32,251 nucleotides of DNA, taken from IMG/VR virus record IMGVR_UViG_3300045988_093155, one strand, 5' to 3'. Below are positions 153 to 32,251 of this stretch, piece after piece (position 1 is the stretch's first letter; every line of letters begins with the position of its first letter). Both the position numbers and the translations under genes were made by a program. The stretch comes from a virus. Below the pieces are notes generated by a model. That model did no database searches. It had not been told where the DNA came from and worked only from the letters and a program-made list of their open reading frames with translations.

Positions 153-1865
153 ATGAATGAGGGCGTTAAAGTAAAATATGGCGATATAGCACCCGAAGCA
201 AAAGAAAATTTTACATATACGGCAACAAATTCAGAACCTTTTGTTAATATGGCGCAATTTCAGCAATATAATCTTGATTTTCCGAACTATGGAAATCCGT
301 GCGATTATGGCTCAGTACTGCTTAATAATCAGTCAGTGCCTTTTCCCAAATATCCCGAATCTTCAAATATGGGATACTGGAGCAACATAATAAGCGATGA
401 AAACGGAGATTTTGCAAACGATATTGTTTTCACATTTACATCAAGCGGTCAATATTCTTCACAGGGGTTTACAATTACGTTTGACACGTACAATAACATA
501 TATTGCACGGATTTATCTATAACATGGTATAGAAATAATCAGCAGATAGCAACAGAATCGTTTCAGCCTGATTCCGCGTTTTACTTTTGTCAAAAGAATG
601 TTGAGAATTACGACAAAATTGTAATGACGTTTAAAAAAATAAATATGCCGTATAATAGGTTAAAAATTCGCACTATTGATTTTGGTTATGGTGCTTATTT
701 TTACGGTGATGAGCTTAAAAACGTAAGCTGTATACACGAAATTAATCCTATTTCTGCGGAATTGCCTATTAATACAATTGATTTTACATTAAGAAGCAAA
801 GGCAGTTTTGATTATTCTTTTCAAAACAAACAACCGTTAGAAATATATTTTAATGGCAAGCTTCAAGATGTTAGTTTTGTAAACAAATCTCAAAGAACAT
901 CAAAAACAACGTGGAAAATTCAAAGTGAAGATTATATAGGGCAATTGTCTAAGCTTGCATTTGTGGGTGGAATGTATGAAAATCAAAACGCTAAAGAATT
1001 GTTAATAAAAATATTTACGCAGGCAAAAATCCCGTATGAAATATCCGATTCCCTTGCAACTGAAAAAATAACAGGGCTAATTCCAATGAGTACTTGCAGG
1101 GAAGCTATACGGCAGATATGTTTCGCAATTGGTGCAATATGCACAACGGCGTATAGCGACAAAGTGAAAATAATAAAATTGAACAATGAAGTAACGCAAA
1201 AAGTAACGCTTGACAGGATAAGGCAAGGGCAATCGTTTGATGAATCCGACAGAATAACAGCGGTTAATTTAACCGCGCATAGTTATATAAAAAGCACTGA
1301 AACAGTAGAGTTATACAAAGCTGCTGACAGTGGCATAGGTGATGAAATTCTTGTCCAGTTTTCCGAGCCTATATATGATTTAAACATATCAAACGGAGAA
1401 ATATTAAAAAATGCGGATAACACGCCGAAATCATCCGCTACTTATGCGATTATAAAGGCTAATGCGAATTGCGTACTTACTGGCAAAAAATATACTGACA
1501 CAACAACGATATACACAAAACGCAATCCCATAGTTTCGGCATTGGATTTGGAAAACGTTTCAGAAATAACGGACGCAACACTTGTAAATAATACCAATGC
1601 GCAAACGATATTGAACAGAGCATATGACTTTCTGACAAAGCGTACCACAACAAAATTGAAAATATATGAAAGTTTTCATTATGCAACATGGGGTCAAACG
1701 TGGGGAACTTTTAAATGGGGCGGCAAGGAATATGATAAGGCGGTAAAGGTTGGCGACATTATAACCACTGAAACAGAATACAAAGGCGACATAACGGGAC
1801 GGGTTCTTTCTGAACGGTATAATCTTAATGGCAACATTATTGTAAAGGAGTGTGAAATGGTGTGA
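153..1865 (+). CDS. Tail-associated / baseplate hub (Tal-like) structural protein
   Basis: 570-aa ORF. Its ATG abuts the upstream stop. Position (tape measure, small Dit-like gene, then this gene) is the canonical siphovirus Tal slot. No catalytic motif recognised by eye. Confidence 0.6.
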   Translation: MNEGVKVKYGDIAPEAKENFTYTATNSEPFVNMAQFQQYNLDFPNYGNPCDYGSVLLNNQSVPFPKYPESSNMGYWSNIISDENGDFANDIVFTFTSSGQYSSQGFTITFDTYNNIYCTDLSITWYRNNQQIATESFQPDSAFYFCQKNVENYDKIVMTFKKINMPYNRLKIRTIDFGYGAYFYGDELKNVSCIHEINPISAELPINTIDFTLRSKGSFDYSFQNKQPLEIYFNGKLQDVSFVNKSQRTSKTTWKIQSEDYIGQLSKLAFVGGMYENQNAKELLIKIFTQAKIPYEISDSLATEKITGLIPMSTCREAIRQICFAIGAICTTAYSDKVKIIKLNNEVTQKVTLDRIRQGQSFDESDRITAVNLTAHSYIKSTETVELYKAADSGIGDEILVQFSEPIYDLNISNGEILKNADNTPKSSATYAIIKANANCVLTGKKYTDTTTIYTKRNPIVSALDLENVSEITDATLVNNTNAQTILNRAYDFLTKRTTTKLKIYESFHYATWGQTWGTFKWGGKEYDKAVKVGDIITTETEYKGDITGRVLSERYNLNGNIIVKECEMV

Positions 1866-2320
1866 ACCTTTCAATGATAACCGACAGAACAGGAACAGAT
1901 GCAACAACGGCAGAAACATTAAGAGCCCAAATACAGTCGGAGCAAAGTTTGACTGATTCAGAAAAAAAGGCTTTTGAGCGCGGAGCGTGCACTATTGTCA
2001 TGCTCAACCGTGTAGAAAATGCACAAAAATCTCTTGCAGACTTGTTAAACAAATACAAGTATACTGTAAATATATCAAATAAAACAAATTGGACAAACGG
2101 CGAAAAATTTGATAATGCAAATTATGCGCGATTATTGCAAAATCTTAGAGCGTTAAGAAATGCCTTTTACACATATAATACAACGCCAAAAACACCCACA
2201 TATATTTACGGATATTCGGAAGCAAACGACATTGAAAAAATACTTGTTGATATTAATTCCATAATTGAAAGTATGGAAAGCAATTTTAGAGAATGCGACA
2301 CATTTTATTGTGGGGAGTGA
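1862..2320 (+). CDS. Tail-fibre-associated protein (hypothetical)
   Basis: 152-aa ORF. Start is GTG 1862 in a GTGA overlap with the upstream stop, or in-frame ATG 1874. It lies in the fibre block. The TDRT..LNRVE-type motifs are recalled from fibre-linked proteins of Firmicutes phages (memory only). Confidence 0.5.
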   Translation: MNLSMITDRTGTDATTAETLRAQIQSEQSLTDSEKKAFERGACTIVMLNRVENAQKSLADLLNKYKYTVNISNKTNWTNGEKFDNANYARLLQNLRALRNAFYTYNTTPKTPTYIYGYSEANDIEKILVDINSIIESMESNFRECDTFYCGE

Positions 2321-2324
2321 TAAA

Positions 2325-2585
2325 ATGGTAGAATTTATTGATAAAACAGCAACGGTCACAGGTACAAAAATAAACCGCGCGGCACTTATGGGAGTGCAGG
2401 GATTTGTTGCTAATACCGTAACATTTAATCCAGACGGAAGTATAACTGAAACAAACAGCGAAGGGCATACATTAAAAACGGAATTTTCAAACACGGGTAT
2501 AAAACAAACATTTACAGGCACAAAAACAATTGTGAAAAACACTGTATTTAATTCAGACGGCAGTATAACTGAAACAATACAATAG
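2325..2585 (+). CDS. Small repeat-containing tail-fibre-associated protein (hypothetical)
   Basis: ATG 2325 is preceded by a GGGGAG SD. The track start at 2265 lies inside the upstream gene. The protein has two FN(P/S)DGSITET units, encoded by a 31-nt DNA repeat (2424-2454 and 2547-2577, 2 mismatches). Confidence 0.55.
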   Translation: MVEFIDKTATVTGTKINRAALMGVQGFVANTVTFNPDGSITETNSEGHTLKTEFSNTGIKQTFTGTKTIVKNTVFNSDGSITETIQ

Positions 2586-2595
2586 GAGGTGCAAA

Positions 2596-3843
2596 ATGGC
2601 AGAAAGTAAATATTTCCCCGATTTGACTAACGGGGTTGATATGGCAGACGTGCAACAGATAGAAACAGCTTTTACCGCCGTTGAATCTGATGTAAACGCT
2701 TTAAATAGCGGCAAAGTTGATAAAGAAACAGGGAAAGGTCTTTCAAGCAATGATTACACAACGGCAGAAAAAAATTTAGTTGCGACAATTCCCCAAAAGG
2801 CTGACAAAAGCGAGCTCCCAACAAAGGTGAGCAAGCTTGAGAACGACAGCGGCTATCTTACTGAGCATCAAAGCCTTGAGGCGTACATAAAAAAGGCGGA
2901 AGCTTTTGACAAGCTTTGCCCGAGGGGGAGCGCGGAAAGCACAGCGGCTGCGCTCACGCTTACGGACGGCTGCGGCGGCACAAATGTCCGCAATTATGTA
3001 ATTCACGGAGCCGAGGGCGGTGTCGGGGATTTAAACTCAGGCACGGGGAAATATGAAATCCCCGTAACGGTTCGCGGAAAGAATCTTATCAGCGTTGAGA
3101 GAGACATGCGGTCGGAATACGGAACGGGAACATTGATTGAAAAGGGCGCGGATTATGTTATCGCTCAGATGGCGGCTTCGTCAGAGGATGTAGCGCCGGG
3201 CAGTACGAACTACAGCTCCGGTCGGATCGGGTTAAGCCCGAAAACCGCGGGAACAACGGCGTTCAACAATTGCCTTTTCAAGGACATAAAGCCGAACACA
3301 ACATACACGCTGAGTTATGATTTTGAGTATTTTTATTTTCCGGAGAATGTTTCGAAGGTATATCAGCAGTGTCAGATTGTAATAAACGGAAGTTCATATC
3401 CGCAAAGCTCTTCCACCGCGTCACAAATAAACAAACGACTGCACAATAAGCTGACATTTACAACGCCCGAAACAATTTCAAAACTGGAGCTTCTCTTCTC
3501 ACTCAATTCGAGCAAGGTGAAGCTTTCGAACATAATGCTTGAGGAAGGCGGAAGCGAAACGGACTACGAACGGTACGCGGAGCCGCAGACGGCGGTGATA
3601 GAGCTTACCGCGCCGCTCGGGAAAACGGAGCATGTTGTGAACGCTTCGGGAACAACGTTTAAACATAGCCTGCTTTCAAAGGCGAGCACAGCGGAAATAC
3701 CGCTTGTCACATCGGGAACGAATATAATTGAGGTCGGGACAACGGTTGCACCGGGGAAAATCGAGGTTGAGTATTACAAGGACATAAACAAGATATTGGC
3801 AAATCTGAATAATGCAATATTATCACAGGGAGGTAATGTATAA
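2596..3843 (+). CDS. Tail fibre / receptor-binding protein
   Basis: 415 aa with an AGGAGG SD. N-terminal motifs GKGLSSNDYTTAEK and SKLENDSGY are typical of phage fibre shafts. The C-terminal two thirds are encoded by markedly GC-rich DNA. Confidence 0.7.
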   Translation: MAESKYFPDLTNGVDMADVQQIETAFTAVESDVNALNSGKVDKETGKGLSSNDYTTAEKNLVATIPQKADKSELPTKVSKLENDSGYLTEHQSLEAYIKKAEAFDKLCPRGSAESTAAALTLTDGCGGTNVRNYVIHGAEGGVGDLNSGTGKYEIPVTVRGKNLISVERDMRSEYGTGTLIEKGADYVIAQMAASSEDVAPGSTNYSSGRIGLSPKTAGTTAFNNCLFKDIKPNTTYTLSYDFEYFYFPENVSKVYQQCQIVINGSSYPQSSSTASQINKRLHNKLTFTTPETISKLELLFSLNSSKVKLSNIMLEEGGSETDYERYAEPQTAVIELTAPLGKTEHVVNASGTTFKHSLLSKASTAEIPLVTSGTNIIEVGTTVAPGKIEVEYYKDINKILANLNNAILSQGGNV

Positions 3844-4040
3844 TGTTTAACTACAGAAATTTTTTGATGACGGGATTCAGGAGCGCAGTGGGTCACATGG
3901 CGGATTATCAGGTGATACTAAACGCCAACGGCTACTATGAAAAGGGTGTTCTGACGGAAGATGACCTTTCCGAGCTTCAGGCAATGATTGAGGAGAAGAA
4001 CGCGGCAACTATCGAGGAATCTTTGGAGGTTGTAGAATGA
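3843..4040 (+). CDS. XkdX-like small protein (possible fibre assembly factor)
   Basis: 65 aa with a TAATG overlap with the fibre gene. YYEKGVLTEDDL resembles the XkdX-family small proteins that follow fibre genes (memory). Confidence 0.45.
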   Translation: MFNYRNFLMTGFRSAVGHMADYQVILNANGYYEKGVLTEDDLSELQAMIEEKNAATIEESLEVVE

Positions 4041-4522
4041 GTATATGGGCAGAAATTAAGCACGCGTTAAACAGCACTTTGGGAACATCTAACTTTAAGC
4101 CCTTAAATGAAATTGTAATGCAGACGAAAGACCTCGCGGCAAGCGATTACTTGTATAAAGTTATTAATAATAACGAAGTTTCAAGAGACCGTATCCCTAC
4201 ACACAGTTGGGTAACAATAGCAAGTTTAACAATGCACAGAAACGGGAGTGCTCGCATAAAATTTGATATGCAGTCAAACATGGACTCCGGGGGCGTGCGT
4301 ATAAGCGCGCCCAACGGCTCGGCGTACATTAACGCAAGCAGCGACACTACCGCTGGGTGGGTGACACAATCTGCAAATATTTCATTTTCAAAGGGTGACA
4401 CGATACAAATTTCAATCGGAAACGACACAGGTAAGACCCCAACTATTAAAGTGAAAAATATGGGTTTGTACGCTGTGGAGCTTGATATAACGGGGGTTTC
4501 TGTGCAAATTCCTACTGCATAA
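4037..4522 (+). CDS. Hypothetical beta-rich protein between the fibre and lysis genes
   Basis: 161-aa ORF with an ATGA overlap with the upstream gene. No motif recognised. Confidence 0.5.
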   Translation: MSIWAEIKHALNSTLGTSNFKPLNEIVMQTKDLAASDYLYKVINNNEVSRDRIPTHSWVTIASLTMHRNGSARIKFDMQSNMDSGGVRISAPNGSAYINASSDTTAGWVTQSANISFSKGDTIQISIGNDTGKTPTIKVKNMGLYAVELDITGVSVQIPTA

Positions 4523-4541
4523 ATACGAAGGGAGCGGCAAT

Positions 4542-5903
4542 ATGGATAAATTCACGCTTCCGAAGGAGCGGCTTCCGCGCCCGTTTTCGCAGAATATCTA
4601 CAAGGGCGGCAAGTTATATTCCTCTGTCGGTTCGTGCGTTGCGTGCACGTTTACGCGCATTTTGGAGGTTATCAATTACCTTAAAACCGATACATATGTT
4701 AATCTGTCAGTCGGGTATATGTACGGGCGGCACAACCGAAAGGACAAGCAGGGCGGCGGCATGAATGAAAGGCTTGTCCTCGATGAGCTTGTGCAGTCGG
4801 GCACCGTTCCCGAAAGCATGTGCGCGGATTACTGCGAGTTTCCCGAAATAAAGAATATACTTGAAAGCCGCGCAGACCTTGCAGAGCTTGACGAAGCGTC
4901 AAGGGAATATAAAATAAACGGGTGGACGGACATCAGCGGCAGCGGCTTCAAGGCGCGGTTTGAGTGTATTAAAAAATATCTGACTGTGTACGGCTTGCCG
5001 CTTGCAGGCAGAACACGCAAATGCGGCGAGAATCACGAATGCCTGATAGTAGGCTTTGACGGAAATTATATTCTGTGGCTCGACCATGACGGAACGGATA
5101 AGATACACAGCTCGAAATACGACAAATTTACGGCGGCATTTTTTATTGACGGAGGCACGGGAGAAATGGATAATTTCAGAATATTTACATCGGCGGAGCT
5201 TAAGGCATGGCTGTCATCGCAGAGCGTGAGCAGGAAGATAACGACGGTGCAGCTGCATCACACCTACAGTCCGTCATACAAGGATTTTAACGGAAGCAAT
5301 CACGCGGCGCTTCAAAGCGGCATGAAAAGTTATCACGTAAAATCGCGCGGATTTTCGGACATAGCGCAGCACTTTACAATCTTCCCCGACGGCAAGGTCA
5401 TGACGGGGCGCAGTCTTGACCGCGCGGCGGCAGGGATAATCGGGTGCAATGCGGGCGGCATATGCATTGAGTGCCTCGGAAATTTTGACAAAGGCGGCGA
5501 TACAATGACCGCGGCGCAAAAGGCGGCAATCGCGGAAACGGTGAAAATTCTGCTTGACAGGTTTCATCTTACCGCCGATAATGTGACATACCATGCATGG
5601 TGGACGGCAAAAGGGCGGCAGCTCGGCGATTATGTCAAAGGTAAGTCCGCAAAAACGTGCCCCGGCACAAACTTTTTCGGCGGCAACACACGGGCGGCAT
5701 ATGAAAAAAATCTCCGCCCGATGATAGAATCAAAGGGGGAGACAGTTTTGAAAAAGGTTGAAAGCATTAACGATATCGTTTGGGAGCTGACAAACGCGGG
5801 AATCATCACGGACGGCAAGCTGTGGATGAAGAAATGTGAAGAAGATAAAAACGTTTATTGGCTGTGTTACAAGATGGCAAATAAATTGAGGGGGACTTTA
5901 TAA
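4542..5903 (+). CDS. Endolysin: N-terminal papain-like cysteine peptidase plus N-acetylmuramoyl-L-alanine amidase (Amidase_2/PGRP type) plus short C-terminal tail
   Basis: A GSCVAC motif with upstream Q and downstream ENHECLIVGFDG suggests a Cys/His peptidase. VQLHHT...HFTIFPDGKV...ECLGNFD...TYHAWW...KTCPG matches the Amidase_2 zinc-amidase pattern. A GGGAGCGG SD is present. The gene is followed by small membrane proteins. Confidence 0.85.
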   Translation: MDKFTLPKERLPRPFSQNIYKGGKLYSSVGSCVACTFTRILEVINYLKTDTYVNLSVGYMYGRHNRKDKQGGGMNERLVLDELVQSGTVPESMCADYCEFPEIKNILESRADLAELDEASREYKINGWTDISGSGFKARFECIKKYLTVYGLPLAGRTRKCGENHECLIVGFDGNYILWLDHDGTDKIHSSKYDKFTAAFFIDGGTGEMDNFRIFTSAELKAWLSSQSVSRKITTVQLHHTYSPSYKDFNGSNHAALQSGMKSYHVKSRGFSDIAQHFTIFPDGKVMTGRSLDRAAAGIIGCNAGGICIECLGNFDKGGDTMTAAQKAAIAETVKILLDRFHLTADNVTYHAWWTAKGRQLGDYVKGKSAKTCPGTNFFGGNTRAAYEKNLRPMIESKGETVLKKVESINDIVWELTNAGIITDGKLWMKKCEEDKNVYWLCYKMANKLRGTL

Positions 5904-6621: not shown

Positions 6622-6840
6622 GTGATTCCCTTGTATAGATTTGATTTTATGCGTTCGGAATATGAATACATATTAAATGAATGTTGCTTCACGGACGAAG
6701 AAGAAAAAATTTTAAATTTGCGCCGAAAAGGCAAAAGCAACATTGAAATTTCTTTTATTTTATGTATATCTGAACGCACAGTGCAAAGAAGAATCAAAGA
6801 CATAGCAAAGAAAATCCAAAAACTTTTAATTAAATATTGA
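6622..6840 (+). CDS. GerE/LuxR-type or sigma-70 region-4-like HTH transcription regulator (about 70 aa)
   Basis: FTDEEEKILNLRRKGKSNIEISFILCISERTVQRRIKDIAKKI fits the LuxR/GerE / sigma r4 HTH pattern. The start is ambiguous: GTG 6622, TTG 6631 or ATG 6649. Confidence 0.6.
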   Translation: MIPLYRFDFMRSEYEYILNECCFTDEEEKILNLRRKGKSNIEISFILCISERTVQRRIKDIAKKIQKLLIKY

Positions 6841-6860: not shown

Positions 6861-6900
6861 ACCGCTGCGGCTTTTCCTCCTTTCTCCGCGGCGGTTTTTT
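6861..6900 (+). terminator. Rho-independent terminator ending the late/lysis transcription unit
   Basis: ACCGCTGCGG (6861-6870) pairs with CCGCGGCGGT (6887-6896) over 10 bp including one G-U. A TTTTTT run follows. Confidence 0.8.
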
Positions 6901-9807: not shown

Positions 9808-9836
9808 TTGACATTGTTTAAATGACGTGTTACAAT
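9808..9836 (+). promoter_or_regulatory. Sigma-A consensus early promoter
   Basis: TTGACA 9808-9813, 17-nt spacer, TGt-TACAAT 9828-9836. An A/T-tract (UP-like) lies upstream. Confidence 0.8.
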
Positions 9837-12923: not shown

Positions 12924-12952
12924 TTGACATAGTAGCAAATTTATGTTATAAT
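12924..12952 (+). promoter_or_regulatory. Sigma-A consensus promoter
   Basis: TTGACA 12924-12929, 17-nt spacer, TGt-TATAAT (TATAAT 12947-12952). Confidence 0.8.
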
Positions 12953-12964
12953 AATTATATCAAA

Positions 12965-13015
12965 GGTTGTTATTTAAGTAGCAGTTAAATAACAATGCTA
13001 AACTGAATAACAACC
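12965..13015 (+). promoter_or_regulatory. Leader element with mutually exclusive helices
   Basis: There is a perfect 11-bp hairpin (12967-12977 with 12985-12995). Alternatively, 12965-12974 pairs perfectly with 13006-13015. Confidence 0.5.
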
Positions 13016-13022
13016 GCATTTC

Positions 13023-13070
13023 CCGTGTGTTTTGAATACTGCTACTATTCAAGGCACACGGATTTTGTTT
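13023..13070 (+). terminator. Strong intrinsic terminator between promoter 12924 and the replication gene
   Basis: 16-bp stem (13023-13038 with 13046-13061, two G-U pairs), 7-nt loop, then ATTTTGTTT. Confidence 0.75.
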
Positions 13071-13088
13071 ATAAAAAGGGGTGAAATA

Positions 13089-13856
13089 ATGGAATCGGAT
13101 AAATTGAAAGGAATCAAGCTTAACAAAGACGGGTACGGTTTTATTCCAAAGATGGTAATGCAAGACGAAAATATAAGCATTGCCGCAAAGGCAATATATT
13201 CTTATTTTTGCAGTTTTACGGGCGCGGGAGATTGTTGTTTTCCTACTCGAAAACGAATCTGTTTTGATATGGGAATCTCAAATGATAGTTTGGGAAAATA
13301 CATAAAGCAGCTTGCCGATAACGGTTATTTAATAGTCGAACAAGTAAAAGAAAATGGCAGATTTTCGCACAACATATATGCTTTACCCGATACGAAATTA
13401 CCGTGTCCGAAAATTTCCGATACGGAAAAAACCGAATACGAAAATTTGGACACTAAAAATAACAATAATAAAATTAACAATATTAATAAAAATAACAGTA
13501 TTATTAAGAAAGAAGGTAAGAGCGGATATGCCGAAATTCTTTCATCAGTCAATGATGACAGTTTAAGAGATTTGTATTATGAGTTTATAAAAATGCGAAA
13601 GCTTATAAAATCGCCGATGACAGACAGAGCGTTAATAATGCTTATAAAAAAAGTTAACGAATTGGAAACATCGATTGACGGTCAAAAGGCATTACTTGAA
13701 ACAGCAATTATAAATAATTGGAAAAGTGTATACCCATTGAAACAGGGAAACGAAAAGCCGCAAAAGGATAATTCCAAATATGCGCTTGATGATATGGCAG
13801 CTATTGAACGGAAAAAGAGGCTTGAAAAAATAAGAAGGGGGCAGGGCAATGAATGA
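13089..13856 (+). CDS. Replication initiator / replisome organiser (N-terminal winged helix, DnaD-like C-terminal domain)
   Basis: ATG 13089 follows AAGGGGTG (the track ORF 13032 start lies in the leader hairpin). The N-terminus (AKAIYSYFCSF...CFPTRKRICFDMGISNDSLGKYIKQLADNGYLIVEQ) looks like a wHTH. The C-terminus (LYYEFIKMRKLIKSPMTDRALIMLIKKVNEL...AIINNWKSVYP) fits the phage replisome-organiser C-terminal domain. An Asn-rich linker separates them. Confidence 0.7.
   Translation: MESDKLKGIKLNKDGYGFIPKMVMQDENISIAAKAIYSYFCSFTGAGDCCFPTRKRICFDMGISNDSLGKYIKQLADNGYLIVEQVKENGRFSHNIYALPDTKLPCPKISDTEKTEYENLDTKNNNNKINNINKNNSIIKKEGKSGYAEILSSVNDDSLRDLYYEFIKMRKLIKSPMTDRALIMLIKKVNELETSIDGQKALLETAIINNWKSVYPLKQGNEKPQKDNSKYALDDMAAIERKKRLEKIRRGQGNE
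13455..13510 (+). repeat. AT-rich iteron-like tract inside the initiator gene (candidate origin)
   Basis: AAATAACAAT at 13457-13466, AAATTAACAAT at 13471-13481 and AAATAACAGT at 13490-13499 lie in a nearly pure A/T stretch. It encodes the NNNNKINNINKNN linker. Confidence 0.4.
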
Positions 13857-21976: not shown

Positions 21977-22005
21977 CTGACATTTGTATGCTATTGTGAT
22001 AGAAT
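21977..22005 (+). promoter_or_regulatory. Probable promoter inside the head module
   Basis: cTGACA 21977-21982, 17-nt spacer, TGa-TAGAAT (22000-22005). Confidence 0.5.
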
Positions 22006-22033: not shown

Positions 22034-22216
22034 ATGACAAATTACGAATGTATAAAAGAAGCAAATATAAATGAAATGACTGCCGTAATCGTGGCGGTGA
22101 TGCGGTCAAGTATTTGCGAGTTCTGTATTCACGGAGAATGCGCAACAACAGGCAAATGCACAAAAAAAGACACATGGCAAATTGTGAAAGAATGGTTAAA
22201 TACGGAGGTGAAATAA
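22034..22216 (+). CDS. Cys-containing hypothetical protein (60 aa)
   Basis: GGGGGGA SD. CEFCIHGEC..GKC. Confidence 0.55.
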   Translation: MTNYECIKEANINEMTAVIVAVMRSSICEFCIHGECATTGKCTKKDTWQIVKEWLNTEVK

Positions 22217-22374
22217 CGAATACAAATAAAAACAAACACGGGGTATATATCCCTGCTGACCTATGGGAACAGTTACAAGACTTTTGCGAAAAGCATTACA
22301 ATGTTTCCTGTTCTGCGGTTATATGCAGAGCGATAAAAGAATTGATTGAAAAGGAGGGTGGGCAGATTATATGA
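22192..22374 (+). CDS. Ribbon-helix-helix (CopG/Arc-like) DNA-binding protein
   Basis: ATG 22192 is in the frame of track ORF 22114. HGVYIPADLWEQLQDFCEKHYNVSCSAVICRAIKELIEKE fits a beta-strand plus two-helix RHH pattern. The start overlaps the upstream gene by 25 nt. Confidence 0.5.
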   Translation: MVKYGGEITNTNKNKHGVYIPADLWEQLQDFCEKHYNVSCSAVICRAIKELIEKEGGQII

Positions 22375-23818: not shown

Positions 23819-24013
23819 ATGAGAATAATTAAACACGGTAATTATACCCCCCAAATGTATAGATTAGAGTGTAAGAAGTGCGGAACTATATGGGTAGAAG
23901 ATGAACGGAAATTATATGTATTGATTCGCGGCAGCGTAGATAATGGAAAAAGATATGTGTTGGATTGCTGCCCTGTGTGCGGAACTATGGGAGAAACAGA
24001 AATAAAATCTTGA
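23819..24013 (+). CDS. Zinc-ribbon small protein
   Basis: 64 aa. CKKCG...CPVCG. Confidence 0.6.
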   Translation: MRIIKHGNYTPQMYRLECKKCGTIWVEDERKLYVLIRGSVDNGKRYVLDCCPVCGTMGETEIKS

Positions 24014-24038
24014 CAAAACAGGACACAATTGATATAAT
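24010..24038 (+). promoter_or_regulatory. Sigma-A consensus promoter (P-a)
   Basis: TTGACA 24010-24015, 17-nt spacer, TGa-TATAAT (24033-24038). Confidence 0.8.
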
Positions 24039-24044
24039 ATAAAC

Positions 24045-24114
24045 GATGAGTTTTTTTATTTTAATTTCCTCTTGTAAAACGCTATGAGTTGTTAGCCATA
24101 GCGTTTTATTTTTA
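24045..24114 (+). ncRNA. Candidate small RNA 1 (about 70 nt), or a leaderless 13-codon mini-ORF
   Basis: It runs from the predicted start site just after P-a to terminator 24076-24114. It is U-rich with UUUCCUCUU at 24065-24073. ATG 24046 would open MSFFILISSCKTL. Confidence 0.4.
24076..24114 (+). terminator. Rho-independent terminator
   Basis: AAAACGCTATG (24076-24086) pairs with CATAGCGTTTT (24097-24107) over 11 bp. ATTTTTA follows. Confidence 0.7.
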
Positions 24115-24119
24115 TATGC

Positions 24120-24148
24120 TTGACAAACGTGGAAAGATTTGATATAAT
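24120..24148 (+). promoter_or_regulatory. Sigma-A consensus promoter (P-b)
   Basis: TTGACA 24120-24125, 17-nt spacer, TGa-TATAAT (24143-24148). It is nearly the same design as P-a. Confidence 0.8.
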
Positions 24149-24154
24149 AAAATA

Positions 24155-24257
24155 GACAGGAAGCATTGCAAGGCTTGGGATAGGAATAACCTACCTATCC
24201 CCTTGCCTGTCACAATAACGGGTATGAGGTTATAACAGAAATCTTATAGCCTTTTTT
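24155..24257 (+). ncRNA. Candidate small RNA 2 (about 100 nt), or a structured 5' leader of the tRNA/capsid transcript
   Basis: The predicted start site coincides with the foot of a three-segment hairpin: 24155-24159 with 24207-24211, 24168-24173 with 24201-24206, and 24178-24184 with 24194-24200, with a 9-nt loop. A second hairpin and T6 follow at 24228-24257. Confidence 0.45.
24228..24257 (+). terminator. Weak or partial terminator
   Basis: GGTTATAA pairs with TTATAGCC (one G-U) with an 8-nt loop. TTTTTT follows. Confidence 0.5.
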
Positions 24258-24268
24258 ATTTGCTATAA

Positions 24269-24342
24269 TGCGGCATAGTGTAAAGGTAGCACGCAAAACT
24301 TTGACTTTTGACGTAGAGGTTCAATCCCTTTTGCCGCAACCA
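24269..24342 (+). tRNA. tRNA-Gln (anticodon UUG), CCA encoded
   Basis: Folded by hand. Acceptor TGCGGCA/TGCCGCA (7 bp). D stem GTGT/GCAC with D loop AAAGGTA. Anticodon stem CAAAA/TTTTG with loop CTTTGAC. Variable loop ACGT. T stem AGAGG/CCTTT with loop TTCAATC. Discriminator A, then CCA. Confidence 0.9.
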
Positions 24343-24421
24343 TTGACTTTGTGGAAAGTATAAAACCACCAATCCGAACCGCAGAAAAAGCGGTATATAA
24401 AATATTTTAGGAGGGTATCGA

Positions 24422-25012
24422 ATGGTAAACATTCACGAAATTTTAAAAGGCATAGGCGTTGAGATTCCCGCTGAAAAAAAGGCGGAATTTGATAAGGCTA
24501 TGACCGAAAACTACAAAACGATTGCAGAAGTGCAGAAAATCAATGCGAAGCTTGAAGTCGCAAATACAGATTTGCAAGCGACAAAAGAAACATTACAAAA
24601 CATGGCAACAGAGTTTAAAACATTCAAACAAAACAATTCATCGGCTGAGGACTTTAAGAAAAAATACGAAGATTTGCTCGCCGATAACAAGCGTAAAGAA
24701 AAAGCACAACAGGCAGCATATGAGGAAACACAGGAACGCGCAGTATTTGACAAATACTTTGCTGACAATCAAAAAGAATGGTATTCTCCAATGATTGCAG
24801 ACGGATATTTTACAAAATTCAAAGAAGCGCGAAAAGCCGAAGAAAACAAAAGCAAAATGACGGCTGATATTCTGCATGAGTTGACAAAGGACGATGTGAC
24901 GGCATTCAAGGGAGTTAAGCCCGATGTAAAACTTAAAGGCGCGTCACAGCTTGGCGGCACAGAAAGCCGCATGAAAGAACTTTATAAAAACAATCCTTTT
25001 TTTAAAGGGTAA
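24422..25012 (+). CDS. Scaffolding protein (GP20-like)
   Basis: 196 aa with an AGGAGGG SD. It is highly charged and coiled-coil, and lies immediately upstream of the major capsid gene. Confidence 0.7.
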   Translation: MVNIHEILKGIGVEIPAEKKAEFDKAMTENYKTIAEVQKINAKLEVANTDLQATKETLQNMATEFKTFKQNNSSAEDFKKKYEDLLADNKRKEKAQQAAYEETQERAVFDKYFADNQKEWYSPMIADGYFTKFKEARKAEENKSKMTADILHELTKDDVTAFKGVKPDVKLKGASQLGGTESRMKELYKNNPFFKG

Positions 25013-31919: not shown

Positions 31920-32251
31920 GTGGCGAAAACAATCGGGGATTACGTTAAAATCGGTGGGCGAACATGGAATGTAAAAGTAAAAGAAATTTCAGAAAACTTT
32001 AATATCTTAGATACTGAAAATGCGGGGCGTGTTATAAACAAAGGCGCAATGACACTTGACCGAATCGGAACATTTTTTGGGCATAAAGTAACTTTTTTCA
32101 GAGATAAAGCAAGCATTAGCGAATATGACGAATTATTCATGTATTTAGCAACACCACGGAACACCGGAATCGCTGTTGACCTCGTACACGGACAAGGCAC
32201 ACTTCAATATAACGCCTATGTTGCAAGCGGAGAAAGAAAAATAAAAAAAAT
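31920..32251 (+). CDS. 5' part of the wrap-around tail gene (putative distal tail protein); continues at 74..152 once the 73-nt overlap is collapsed
   Basis: GTG 31920 lies 5 nt after GAGGTG. The frame is open to the end of the window and is in phase with the stop at 150-152. Confidence 0.6.
   Translation, partial: MAKTIGDYVKIGGRTWNVKVKEISENFNILDTENAGRVINKGAMTLDRIGTFFGHKVTFFRDKASISEYDELFMYLATPRNTGIAVDLVHGQGTLQYNAYVASGERKIKK
32179..32251. repeat. Terminal direct repeat copy 2
   Basis: Identical to 1..73. Confidence 0.95.

Follow-up and report, generated by a model that had tools for sequence, protein, structure and literature searches.

A conserved promoter-RNA-terminator unit ahead of the scaffold and capsid genes of a gut phage, a candidate cis-acting leader

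Organization of the Locus

The window analysed here is the whole 32,251-nt IMG/VR record IMGVR_UViG_3300045988_093155, a complete and circular phage genome. Between its zinc-ribbon ORF and its scaffold gene lies a 408-nt gap (24013-24422) that holds short ORFs only, namely overlapping predicted frames of at most 58 aa on the minus strand and 31 aa on the plus strand. The two promoters, the two hairpins followed by T-runs and the tRNA that the original prediction had described there were all found in the window, all on the plus strand. They make up two units, A and B, that are followed by the tRNA and that, judging from sequence comparison, are not equivalent: B is conserved among relatives and A is strain-specific. 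A small hairpin read from the sequence (ACCGCAGAAAAAGCGGU, 24377-24393, plus strand) stands just 5' of the scaffold Shine-Dalgarno (SD), and a similar one precedes the scaffold ribosome-binding site in the relatives L038 and L063.

According to the ORF list, the scaffold gene (24422-25012, plus strand) is the first gene of the operon downstream of unit B. It is followed on the same strand by the major capsid gene (25016/25031-25921), whose product matches a major head protein PHROG family, and the phage also encodes a conventional large terminase and portal, as well as a tail protein that bears a dockerin. An equivalent place is occupied in relatives by a PF06810 scaffold gene. The scaffold gene itself is swapped in the window, the DNA upstream of unit B is mosaic, and the slot between the minor-head gene and promoter P-b of unit B is hypervariable across relatives.

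Unit B occurs once per genome in every examined relative with a capsid protein at least 83% identical, and lies in each case between the minor-head region and the scaffold-capsid genes, in the orientation of the latter (13 distinct sequences, about 16 contigs). Two covariance models, R1 and R2, detected no copy in about 60 loci where capsid-protein identity is 40-76%, and never a second one in the same genome. The phage clade is common in human-gut metagenomes, where more than 120 capsid-protein clusters were found at 83-98% identity, many of them on complete contigs of 32-34 kb; the host would be of a Gram-positive, Clostridia type. Searches of cultured phages by blastn and tblastn gave no useful relative, a search of IMG/VR with the minor-head protein gave no relatives, and three exact-pattern scans of IMG/VR returned the same three contigs only.

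Promoters and the Structural Operon

The predicted promoter P-b (24120-24148, plus strand) matches TTGACA-17-TATAAT at 12 of 12 positions, with a TG at -15/-14. P-a (24010-24038, plus strand), which overlaps the stop of the zinc-ribbon ORF, is likewise a 12/12 match with a 17-nt spacer and a TG-extended TATAAT. By sequence match, both thus carry all the elements of a sigma-70/sigma-A promoter (TTGACA, 17-bp spacer, TATAAT and TG). To call them twins was fair wording, as they share 26 of 34 positions, including 11 of the 17 spacer bases. The pattern TTGACA-N14-TGNTATAAT, with up to two mismatches, was found six times in the window (0.45 expected from shuffles), each time on the plus strand and five times between genes. 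P-a is present in no relative. The relatives whose flanking DNA was read have an equivalent of P-b (TTGACA-17-TATAAT or TAAAAT) equally far from the RNA. The spacer and the DNA upstream of it are not the same in the window, the L001 type and the L090 type.

From the scaffold gene to a terminator at 6862-6900 (about 14.6 kb), no promoter matching at 11 of 12 positions or better was found upstream of late genes besides P-b; the only other plus-strand match of this quality in the stretch, at 5554, lies inside the endolysin gene near the distal end of the operon. Similarly, no further promoter of this quality was found 3' of unit B in the scanned stretches of three relatives. As the sole strong promoter ahead of the structural operon, P-b would be the promoter of both the leader RNA and the scaffold-capsid-tail-lysis genes, much as the original prediction had offered, for P-a and P-b together, as its more ordinary alternative. 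Since no other strong promoter precedes these 14.6 kb, transcription of the structural genes would have to pass terminator B. A third TGNTATAAT element (TGCTATAAT, 24261-24269, plus strand), read from the sequence, overlaps the first base of the tRNA, has no usable -35 and is absent from the promoter scan output; the same TGCTATAAT forms the -10 region of P-b in relatives, and the element is probably a vestige.

A Covarying Three-Way Junction at the Predicted Start of Transcription

Unit B (24120-24257, plus strand) consists of P-b, a 57-nt structured RNA and a terminator, and its promoter, RNA structure, terminator, conservation and position can all be read from the aligned sequences. The RNA (24155-24211, plus strand) begins at the predicted +1 and folds into a three-way junction on which RNAalifold and single-sequence folds agree; the fold of the unit reaches -35.5 kcal/mol (z = -4.45). 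The outer stem P1 pairs 24155-24160 with 24206-24211. P2 (24161-24164 with 24173-24176) carries loop L2 (24165-24172, A-UUGCAA-G), P3 (24177-24184 with 24194-24201) carries loop L3 (24185-24193, AAUAACCUA), and the segment J3/1 (24202-24205) leads back to P1. This region had been described as an 18-bp three-segment hairpin; the structured 57-nt segment, its start at the predicted +1 and the outer and apical segments stand, and the middle helix of the linear hairpin is given up for the junction, as it shows no covariation and is broken in diverged relatives.

Structural covariation in relatives, the check that the original prediction had itself proposed, is clear for unit B, with compensatory changes in 14 of 29 pairs. 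Overall, 99.7% of alignment cells are paired, against 37-55% in slid controls; in P1 to P3 all cells are paired, and 11 of the 18 pairs show changes on both sides. The loop sequences UUGCAA (L2) and AACC (L3) are invariant while every stem changes, and UUGCAA is a perfect 6-nt palindrome in every sequence. The G.U replacements in the stems are consistent with a plus-strand RNA only. In both diverged types, the predicted +1 is the first base of P1; the initial transcribed region is itself a covarying stem. Selection appears to act on the structure of the RNA and also on sequence beyond structure.

No family matched unit B in Rfam 15, where nothing but the tRNA exceeded threshold at gathering or permissive settings; in the permissive scan of 23950-24450, non-tRNA matches reached 11-19 bits against thresholds of 40-90. 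The comparisons support the earlier description of a dedicated promoter-RNA-terminator unit. A reading of the RNA as a T-box or tRNA mimic was rejected, as ARAGORN calls no tRNA there, the arms have the wrong geometry and a UGGN bulge is missing.

Terminator B and a Near-Invariant 13-Mer

Terminator B (24226-24261, plus strand) begins about 8 nt 3' of the junction RNA and consists of a hairpin (24226-24251/3), six Ts (24252-24257) and a following AUUU; the RNA ending there would measure about 105 nt. By sequence, terminators A and B both qualify as intrinsic (Rho-independent) terminators, bearing out what had been said of the hairpin and T-run after each promoter; the automated terminator scan missed both owing to loop size and GC content. 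Terminator B is canonical in relatives (11 bp, -16 to -19 kcal/mol, U6AU3-4), compared with -11.5 kcal/mol in the window, the weakest of all variants, and its stem is maintained by compensatory changes in three to four versions.

The 5' arm of this stem stays constant while the 3' arm varies. It bears, together with the end of the linker, a near-invariant 13-mer (GGGUAUGAGGUUA, 24220-24232, plus strand), which is exact in all 26 carrier loci matching the search, with one variant (L087) showing a single A-to-G change. The GGUUA of the 13-mer is complementary to the UAACC of L3, a candidate pairing of 4-7 bp whose core is invariant and thus of a kind that covariation cannot test. No classical mutually exclusive antiterminator helix was found between P1 and terminator B, and the 13-mer showed no target complementarity beyond chance within the phage genome. 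A small ORF in the 13-mer (AUG-AGG-UUA) was discarded, its length not being conserved (three codons in the window) and no SD preceding it. Unit B combines the marks of a riboswitch or attenuator sensor, i.e., covarying stems, conserved unpaired bases, a leader position and a terminator. In most relatives, the interval from the minor-head gene to P-b lacks a terminator. The portal boundary of the same genomes shows a terminator followed by a promoter, whereas unit B runs from promoter through RNA to terminator.

Unit A

The predicted transcript of unit A (24045-24117, plus strand; about 65-72 nt) is U-rich and folds at -17 kcal/mol (z = -4.05). It contains a 13-codon ATG ORF read from the sequence (24046-24087, plus strand), with the ATG at about +1, and a UUUCCUCUU tract (24065-24073, plus strand), also read from the sequence, and ends in terminator A (hairpin 24075-24108, then a T-run; dG -14.8 kcal/mol). 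No homolog was found in 81 loci. The promoters of both units are alike, and their transcribed parts show no significant similarity; a decayed copy of unit B was rejected as the origin of unit A, since 43 of 1000 shuffles scored as high in local alignment and nothing but a T-run matches.

In the light of these data, unit A would be a strain-specific by-product of promoter duplication in a hypervariable slot. The original prediction had seen in it an RNA able to pair with SD sequences and a leaderless hydrophobic mini-ORF, and it is improbable that unit A is a functional small RNA gene of either kind, whether anti-SD regulator or leaderless 13-aa peptide. Such a gene would agree with the perfect promoter, the good terminator, the ATG near +1 and the identical sequence in four other metagenome samples, as well as with the different promoter-terminator cassette that L002-type relatives have in the equivalent slot. 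However, P-a looks copied from P-b, the slot is hypervariable, and both proposals remain without comparative support because no relative outside the strain carries the unit. Type I toxin-like small hydrophobic ORFs usually reach at least 20 aa and come with an antisense or overlapping regulator; conservation of a small hydrophobic ORF, which defines that class, is not seen for the 13 codons of unit A. Anti-SD pairing with the 13-mer or with the scaffold SD was also dismissed, as it amounts by eye to 4 bp only.

The tRNA Gene

The tRNA 3' of the second terminator was identified by ARAGORN and Rfam (62.2 bits against a threshold of 29) as tRNA-Gln(UUG) with an encoded CCA (24269-24342, plus strand). 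It follows terminator B and, lacking a productive promoter, would be expressed by read-through of that terminator. In relatives, a different tRNA-Gln(UUG) is located about 3.2 kb deeper in the late operon, or there is none, which suggests a movable passenger co-transcribed with the operon. The ORFs of the phage use 170 CAA codons versus 78 CAG.

A Candidate Cis-Acting Leader and Its Alternatives

We consider it about evenly balanced whether unit B is a cis-acting attenuation or antitermination leader following the logic of lambda PR'-tR' or HK022 put. The host sigma-A/sigma-70 RNA polymerase would initiate at P-b and the nascent RNA would fold from +1 into the three-way junction; some 8 nt further on, the invariant 13-mer and the intrinsic terminator would be transcribed. 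By default, we infer, polymerase would stop at terminator B and release the RNA of about 105 nt, so that expression of the tRNA, scaffold, capsid, tail and lysis genes would need read-through, presumably governed by the junction RNA. The most concrete route would be a capture by the UAACC of L3 of the GGUUA at the base of the 5' arm of the terminator, whose hairpin could then not nucleate. Such a capture might be autonomous, might proceed via a contact with RNA polymerase (put-like) or might involve a phage or host factor (nut-like).

Several traits support such a leader at the level of sequence: the single copy of unit B keeps its position and orientation despite mosaic upstream DNA and a swapped scaffold gene, the complete circular genome offers no promoter that bypasses terminator B, the terminator itself appears to be under selection (canonical form, compensatory changes), the order of elements is the reverse of that at the portal boundary, and a tRNA with no productive promoter lies beyond the terminator of the window, the weakest variant. 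The covarying junction and the (nearly) invariant loops and 13-mer, the start of P1 at the predicted +1, comparable to that of HK022 putL at +3, and a second unit of similar make-up before the replication genes also speak for a leader. Against it, scans with Pfam, PHROGs and NCBIfam brought up no antiterminator protein, the L3:GGUUA pairing is short (4-7 bp) and, being invariant, has no support from covariation, no classical mutually exclusive helix exists between P1 and the terminator, and late mRNA would also arise, without any regulation, if a strong constitutive promoter were combined with a partial terminator. Furthermore, as P-b is not preceded by a terminator in most relatives, terminator B may have the additional task of ending the upstream minor-head operon.

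This last point is also at the heart of a reading that we find rather unlikely, in which unit B is an ordinary late promoter with a 5' stabilising structure and a leaky terminator, free of specific regulation. In detail, the junction would shield the mRNA from 5'-end-dependent decay by RNase J/RppH and the terminator would mainly end the minor-head operon, halting upstream transcripts; we judge this version to be equally doubtful. Structures starting at +1 are typical of 5' stabilisers in Firmicutes, and the RNA of unit B begins exactly there; the weak terminator of the window also fits. However, a 5' stem would suffice for this purpose, making the invariant loops, the invariant 13-mer and the three-way junction superfluous, a terminator of the upstream operon should precede the promoter, as it does at the portal boundary, and the output of the strongest possible promoter would be wasted on a terminator of -17 kcal/mol behind it. 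Of the ordinary alternative in the original prediction, P-b as capsid-operon promoter holds, whereas a plain stabiliser with an accidentally leaky terminator is insufficient, because the invariant loops, the invariant 13-mer and the compensated terminator stem are left unexplained. It is more plausible, yet still clearly less so than a cis-acting leader, that unit B is a gene for an abundant stand-alone RNA of about 105 nt acting in trans, capsid read-through being leakage. This RNA might target phage or host mRNAs or proteins, or serve as a decoy or in anti-defence, possibly with self-association via UUGCAA. The unit is indeed complete, its promoter being maximal and its terminator strong and covarying; the invariant single-stranded loops, including the palindrome of L2, resemble recognition or seed elements, and helices close both ends, P1 the 5' end and the terminator hairpin the 3' end, like in stable sRNAs. 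On the other hand, strict linkage and co-orientation with promoterless scaffold-capsid genes is the signature of a cis-regulatory leader, no target for the 13-mer turned up in the phage genome, and the sRNA, decoy and anti-defence roles found no support in the tests run here.

A particular form of RNA product, self-associating via UUGCAA and perhaps AACC/GGUU, with a role in head assembly or packaging (a pRNA-type quaternary structure) or as an anti-defence decoy, strikes us as highly improbable; were the RNA a functional product, the terminator would serve to keep it far more abundant than capsid mRNA. Least credible of all is that the conserved inverted repeats act as DNA, be it as an operator bound by a protein or as a site for packaging or replication. 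The repeats are palindromic in DNA (TTGCAA, GGGATAGG/CCTATCCC), but stem sequences vary freely provided that pairing is kept, several replacements are G.U, i.e., C.A mismatches on the opposite strand, and the location at +1, before a terminator, suits a transcript.

If the junction RNA does control read-through, unit B would represent a compact RNA switch over the entire structural operon of a phage of Gram-positive, Clostridia-type hosts. Well-described RNA-based counterparts are, to our knowledge, limited to HK022 put in E. coli and the large antiterminator RNAs found in conjugative elements. Its size of 57 nt suits direct structural and biochemical study and could make it a portable regulatory part. 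Even if trans-acting, unit B would constitute a well-supported new RNA family with clear covariation.

Comparison with Known Systems

The lambda PR'/6S RNA/tR'/Q system resembles unit B in placing a strong constitutive promoter and a short terminated leader RNA before a long late operon; that operon is expressed only via read-through of the terminator, as proposed here for the operon of unit B. Lambda Q loads via a promoter DNA site together with a sigma-dependent pause. Unlike in lambda, the spacer of P-b is not conserved, no conserved DNA element adjoins the promoter, the initial transcribed region is the covarying P1 stem where a Q unit would have a -10-like pause element, no Q gene or Q-like protein was found among the scanned ORFs, and the conserved part is the RNA.

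HK022 put is a folded multi-helix RNA of about 60-70 nt that lies 1-3 nt from a sigma-70 start and upstream of terminators, acts in cis and needs no dedicated phage protein (PMC9378689); putL starts at +3 (PMC9378689). Its antitermination is factor-independent and proceeds via the zinc-binding domain of the RNA polymerase beta-prime subunit. Unit B is comparable in size and position, with 57 nt from +1 and a terminator 8 nt downstream. However, put consists of two side-by-side stem-loops in two copies per genome, whereas unit B forms a closed three-way junction, not two open stem-loops, in a single copy; no sequence similarity links them, and the host of unit B would be a Gram-positive of Clostridia type.

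Among elements of Firmicutes, conAn2 of pLS20, canT of Tn916 and EAR of Bacillus are cis RNAs at the head of a long operon that enable polymerase to pass intrinsic terminators; conAn is described as a "large RNA element" plus a protein (PMC8191782), and the activity of canT needs more than 290 nt (PMC11658703). In contrast to unit B, conAn2, canT and EAR are large; they are unrelated to it in sequence, and a 57-nt three-way junction at +1 has been described for none of them. Riboswitches of the terminator type and protein-binding attenuator leaders share its layout of an aptamer-like junction, covarying stems, invariant unpaired bases and a terminator platform, but unit B shows no mutually exclusive antiterminator helix, no Rfam match and no known ligand or binding protein. 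Finally, phi29 pRNA is, like unit B, a small three-way-junction RNA of a phage head module with self- or mutually complementary loops, and AACC/GGUU is the interlocking pair in phi29 pRNA. Unit B is half its size, however, has no Rfam pRNA match and belongs to a phage with conventional large terminase and portal, so the resemblance may serve as a lead only.

Search for Factors and a Second Leader Unit

Scans of the ORFs with Pfam, PHROGs and NCBIfam identified no member of the Q, antiterminator, RinA or ArpU families, of which remote homologs could escape. The search for a Q- or N-like factor yielded only a GerE/LuxR helix-turn-helix protein (HTH, 6622-6840) and a weak RHH match (22114-22374).

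Ahead of the replication genes, the window harbours another consensus promoter followed by a structured leader and a terminator (12924-13090), in which loop-loop complementarity is retained by a compensatory change in one relative. As this arrangement resembles that of unit B, promoter-proximal attenuators look like a general habit of the phage.

Two promoter-terminator units and a tRNA before the scaffold gene

Promoters P-a (24010-24038) and P-b (24120-24148), both on the + strand, match the sigma-70 consensus at 12 of 12 positions with a TG-extended -10 element, and are the top two sites in the 8 kb scanned. They are identical at 26 of 34 positions (11 of 17 in the spacer), and the pattern TTGACA-N14-TGNTATAAT, allowing at most two mismatches, occurs six times in the window, each time on the + strand, for 0.45 occurrences expected. 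A hairpin and T-run lies 3' of each promoter (terminator A, -14.8 kcal/mol; terminator B, -10.3 kcal/mol; own scan), and the predicted transcripts of the resulting units A and B have folding z-scores of -4.05 and -4.45. The 408-nt gap otherwise holds short overlapping predicted reading frames only (at most 58 aa, on the - strand) and a tRNA-Gln(UUG) at 24269-24342 (+), on which ARAGORN and Rfam agree. The twin promoters, two terminators and tRNA of the original prediction were thus all found, as was every other feature it listed, whereas its interpretation is only partly supported.

The stretch 24261-24269 (+) is a third extended -10 element, TGCTATAAT, again perfect; it lacks a -35 element and overlaps the first base of the tRNA. 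In relatives this nonamer forms the P-b -10 region, so that in the window it may be left over from the rearrangement by which the tRNA came in.

Unit B encodes a conserved three-way junction RNA

The 57-nt RNA of unit B (24155-24211) folds into a three-way junction, a result obtained both with RNAalifold and by folding diverged copies independently, one sequence at a time. Helix P1 (6 bp) begins at +1, P2 (4 bp) is closed by the loop N-UUGCAA-N, and P3 (8 bp) carries a 9-nt loop with AACC inside, followed by a 4-nt junction strand, J3/1. A linear hairpin had been proposed here, the middle helix of which shows no covariation and is broken in the diverged group. The structural covariation in relatives that had been suggested as a check is present: among 13 distinct sequences, pairing holds in 99.7% of cells and both-sided changes affect 14 of 29 pairs, compared with 37-55% paired and double changes in 1-4 pairs when partners are slid by 1-3 columns. 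The alignment was fitted to the model, and the raw sequences display the same swaps, e.g., GACAGG/CCUGUC to CGACGG/CCGUCG, AAGC/GCUU to GGGU/ACCC, and GGGAUAGG/CCUAUCCC to GGGGCGGG/CCCGCCCC. G.U replacements are compatible with a + strand transcript only. The RNA matches no Rfam family, and comparative evidence identifies it as a well-supported structured RNA family, new as judged against Rfam; large surveys of phages and human microbiomes have reported thousands of structured RNA candidates, none of them named (PMC10690425, PMC8040213).

Every stem of unit B changes, yet four elements stay constant or nearly so: the perfectly palindromic L2 hexamer UUGCAA; AACC within L3; two junction U residues; and the 13-mer GGGUAUGAGGUUA at the foot of terminator B, with a single A-to-G change in L087 (L numbers denote loci of relatives from metagenome contigs). 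In terminator B the 3' arm varies by UA or UG alternation and the 5' arm GGUUA is fixed. The UAACC of L3 is complementary to this GGUUA over 4-7 bp, and the window and L087 show one change each, both extending the complementarity. Since this core is invariant, covariation cannot assess the candidate pairing.

Unit B is retained while its surroundings vary

Unit B was kept in every relative examined with a capsid protein at least 83% identical, in exactly one copy per locus and always immediately 5' of the scaffold and capsid genes. The DNA 5' of it differs in almost every genome, and the window departs from its relatives even in the scaffold gene and the 3' leader. Its RNA is absent from relatives with a capsid protein 40-76% identical, where a terminator is followed by other leader sequences. 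The pre-scaffold gaps of two loci without the junction RNA (L044, about 873-890; L081, about 3310-3327) have the motif TTTGGGGGGTTAGAAAT in common. It lies just 5' of a weak promoter-like -10 and may mark another kind of late promoter or a site for an activator. Directly 5' of the scaffold Shine-Dalgarno (SD) sequence, a small hairpin with the sequence CCGCAGAAAAAGCGG or one like it (window 24377-24393) also occurs in L038 (about 3380-3400) and L063 (about 3372-3388), both distant and without the junction RNA.

No homolog of unit A was found in any relative searched. Its arrangement in the window is real, since it recurs base-for-base in four other samples, and unit A is, judging from its distribution, a strain-specific cassette. 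In the same slot, L002 (2985-3205), L008 and L013 harbor a different promoter-terminator cassette (in L002, TTGACG-17-TATAAT with TG, a predicted transcript of about 150 nt with a UCUCCUCU tract, and a strong terminator), and other relatives have small ORFs of 39-70 aa. The space between the minor head gene and P-b thus appears as a hypervariable insertion slot. That unit A is a functional sRNA or peptide gene is quite improbable; nothing in it is conserved.

The tRNA is apparently a movable passenger. Close relatives either have no tRNA or have, about 3.2 kb deeper in the late operon and 3' of the tail-tube gene, a promoterless tRNA-Gln(UUG) of quite different sequence (L009 5278-5351; L010 and L014 7207-7281; L004, L024, L029, L032 and L034 about 3292-3363), and in a more distant group a tRNA-Arg(CCU) occupies the pre-scaffold slot, which suggests repeated and independent acquisition. 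ORFs of the window use 170 CAA and 78 CAG codons.

A possible leader of the structural operon

In relatives, terminator B reaches -16 to -19 kcal/mol with three or four compensated stem versions, and it is canonical and selected; that of the window is the weakest variant of all. It sits between a predicted maximal-strength consensus promoter and the most essential genes of the phage. Elsewhere in these genomes, at the portal boundary, a terminator comes first and a promoter second, as is usual, whereas unit B runs promoter, RNA, terminator. Between terminator B and the late genes no comparable promoter was detected, so that all structural-gene transcription would have to cross this terminator. 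Indeed, no further promoter of at least 11/12 precedes late genes across the approximately 14.6 kb from the scaffold gene to the terminator at 6862-6900, the sole other + strand match at that threshold lying at 5554, inside the endolysin gene near the distal end.

Ahead of the replication-initiator gene stands another unit built to this plan (12924-13090, + strand): its consensus promoter occupies 12924-12952, its leader is structured (about 105 nt, z = -7), and its strong terminator spans 13023-13066 at -21.9 kcal/mol, with an SD sequence and an ATG (13090) coming next. Over 9 nt, the leader-hairpin loop AGUAGCAGU is the exact complement of the terminator loop ACUGCUACU; L008 has A-to-U in the former, compensated by U-to-A in the latter.

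Given the order of elements, the selected terminator, the lack of a bypass promoter and this second unit, we take unit B for a leader that acts in cis, by attenuation or antitermination, on the structural operon of a widespread gut phage clade, and give this reading an even chance. From the parts, structure, conservation and position observed, we infer that terminator B would stop transcription by default and that its read-through would be regulated, the junction RNA being the probable deciding element, either through capture of GGUUA by L3 or through contact of the RNA with RNAP or a factor. The tRNA of the window would also depend on this read-through.

A stand-alone trans-acting RNA would agree with the complete transcription unit and conserved loops, but would leave unexplained the strict linkage to genes without their own promoter; no target was found in the phage genome, and we consider it rather unlikely. 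Distinctly less likely is a leader that does no more than stabilise the 5' end, its terminator being leaky; the start of P1 at +1 would suit this, whereas the invariant loops, the 13-mer and the selected terminator would have no explanation. A DNA-level site, which could account for repeats, is contradicted by the compensatory and G.U changes and is hardly credible.

Among known systems, the leader proposed here resembles lambda PR'-6S-tR' in logic, although a Q gene was not recognised in its phage and the promoter shows no conserved DNA site. The nearest RNA element is HK022 putL, of about 70 nt, which begins at +3 after PL and is factor-free (PMC9378689), but the fold differs. Larger RNA antiterminators exist in elements of Firmicutes, namely conAn (PMC8191782) and canT (PMC11658703). 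With no recognised Q gene or promoter site, a fold unlike that of put and no Rfam match, unit B is assigned here to none of the lambda-Q, put or conAn/canT families.

Layout of the genome and its relatives

The window opens with 73 nt (1-73) that recur at its end (32179-32251), which makes it a complete circular genome of about 32.18 kb. Every gene lies on the + strand, and none was recognised as an integrase. Putative distal structural ORFs and the endolysin (153-5903) are followed by recombination and replication genes (about 10-17 kb), then by RusA, ParB-methyltransferase, large terminase, portal and minor head protein (17-24 kb), with scaffold, capsid, connector and tail genes from 24422. 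Consensus promoters lie at 9808, 12924, 17026, 24010 and 24120, and a weaker one at 21977.

No cultured phage relative was found, the relatives being contigs from gut metagenomes, along with prophage-like regions of Oscillospiraceae and Ruminococcaceae-type MAGs. A small tail-region ORF with Dockerin_1 (PF00404) in L087, L090, L091 18552-18812 and L095 15478-15711 is a hint of a Ruminococcus-like host that bears a cellulosome or amylosome. The final ORF ahead of the late-operon-ending terminator (6862-6900) encodes a 72-aa GerE/LuxR-type HTH protein (6622-6840; Pfam PF00196, E = 1.5e-7), a candidate transcription regulator. Between the portal and minor head genes, an 86-aa ORF (22114-22374) has a weak ORF56/CopG-like ribbon-helix-helix match (NCBIfam, E = 1.8e-4, below cut-off). 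In the L004 group, the capsid frame adjoins the scaffold stop (L004 3983-4000), and the conserved N-terminus is not preceded by ATG, GTG or TTG.
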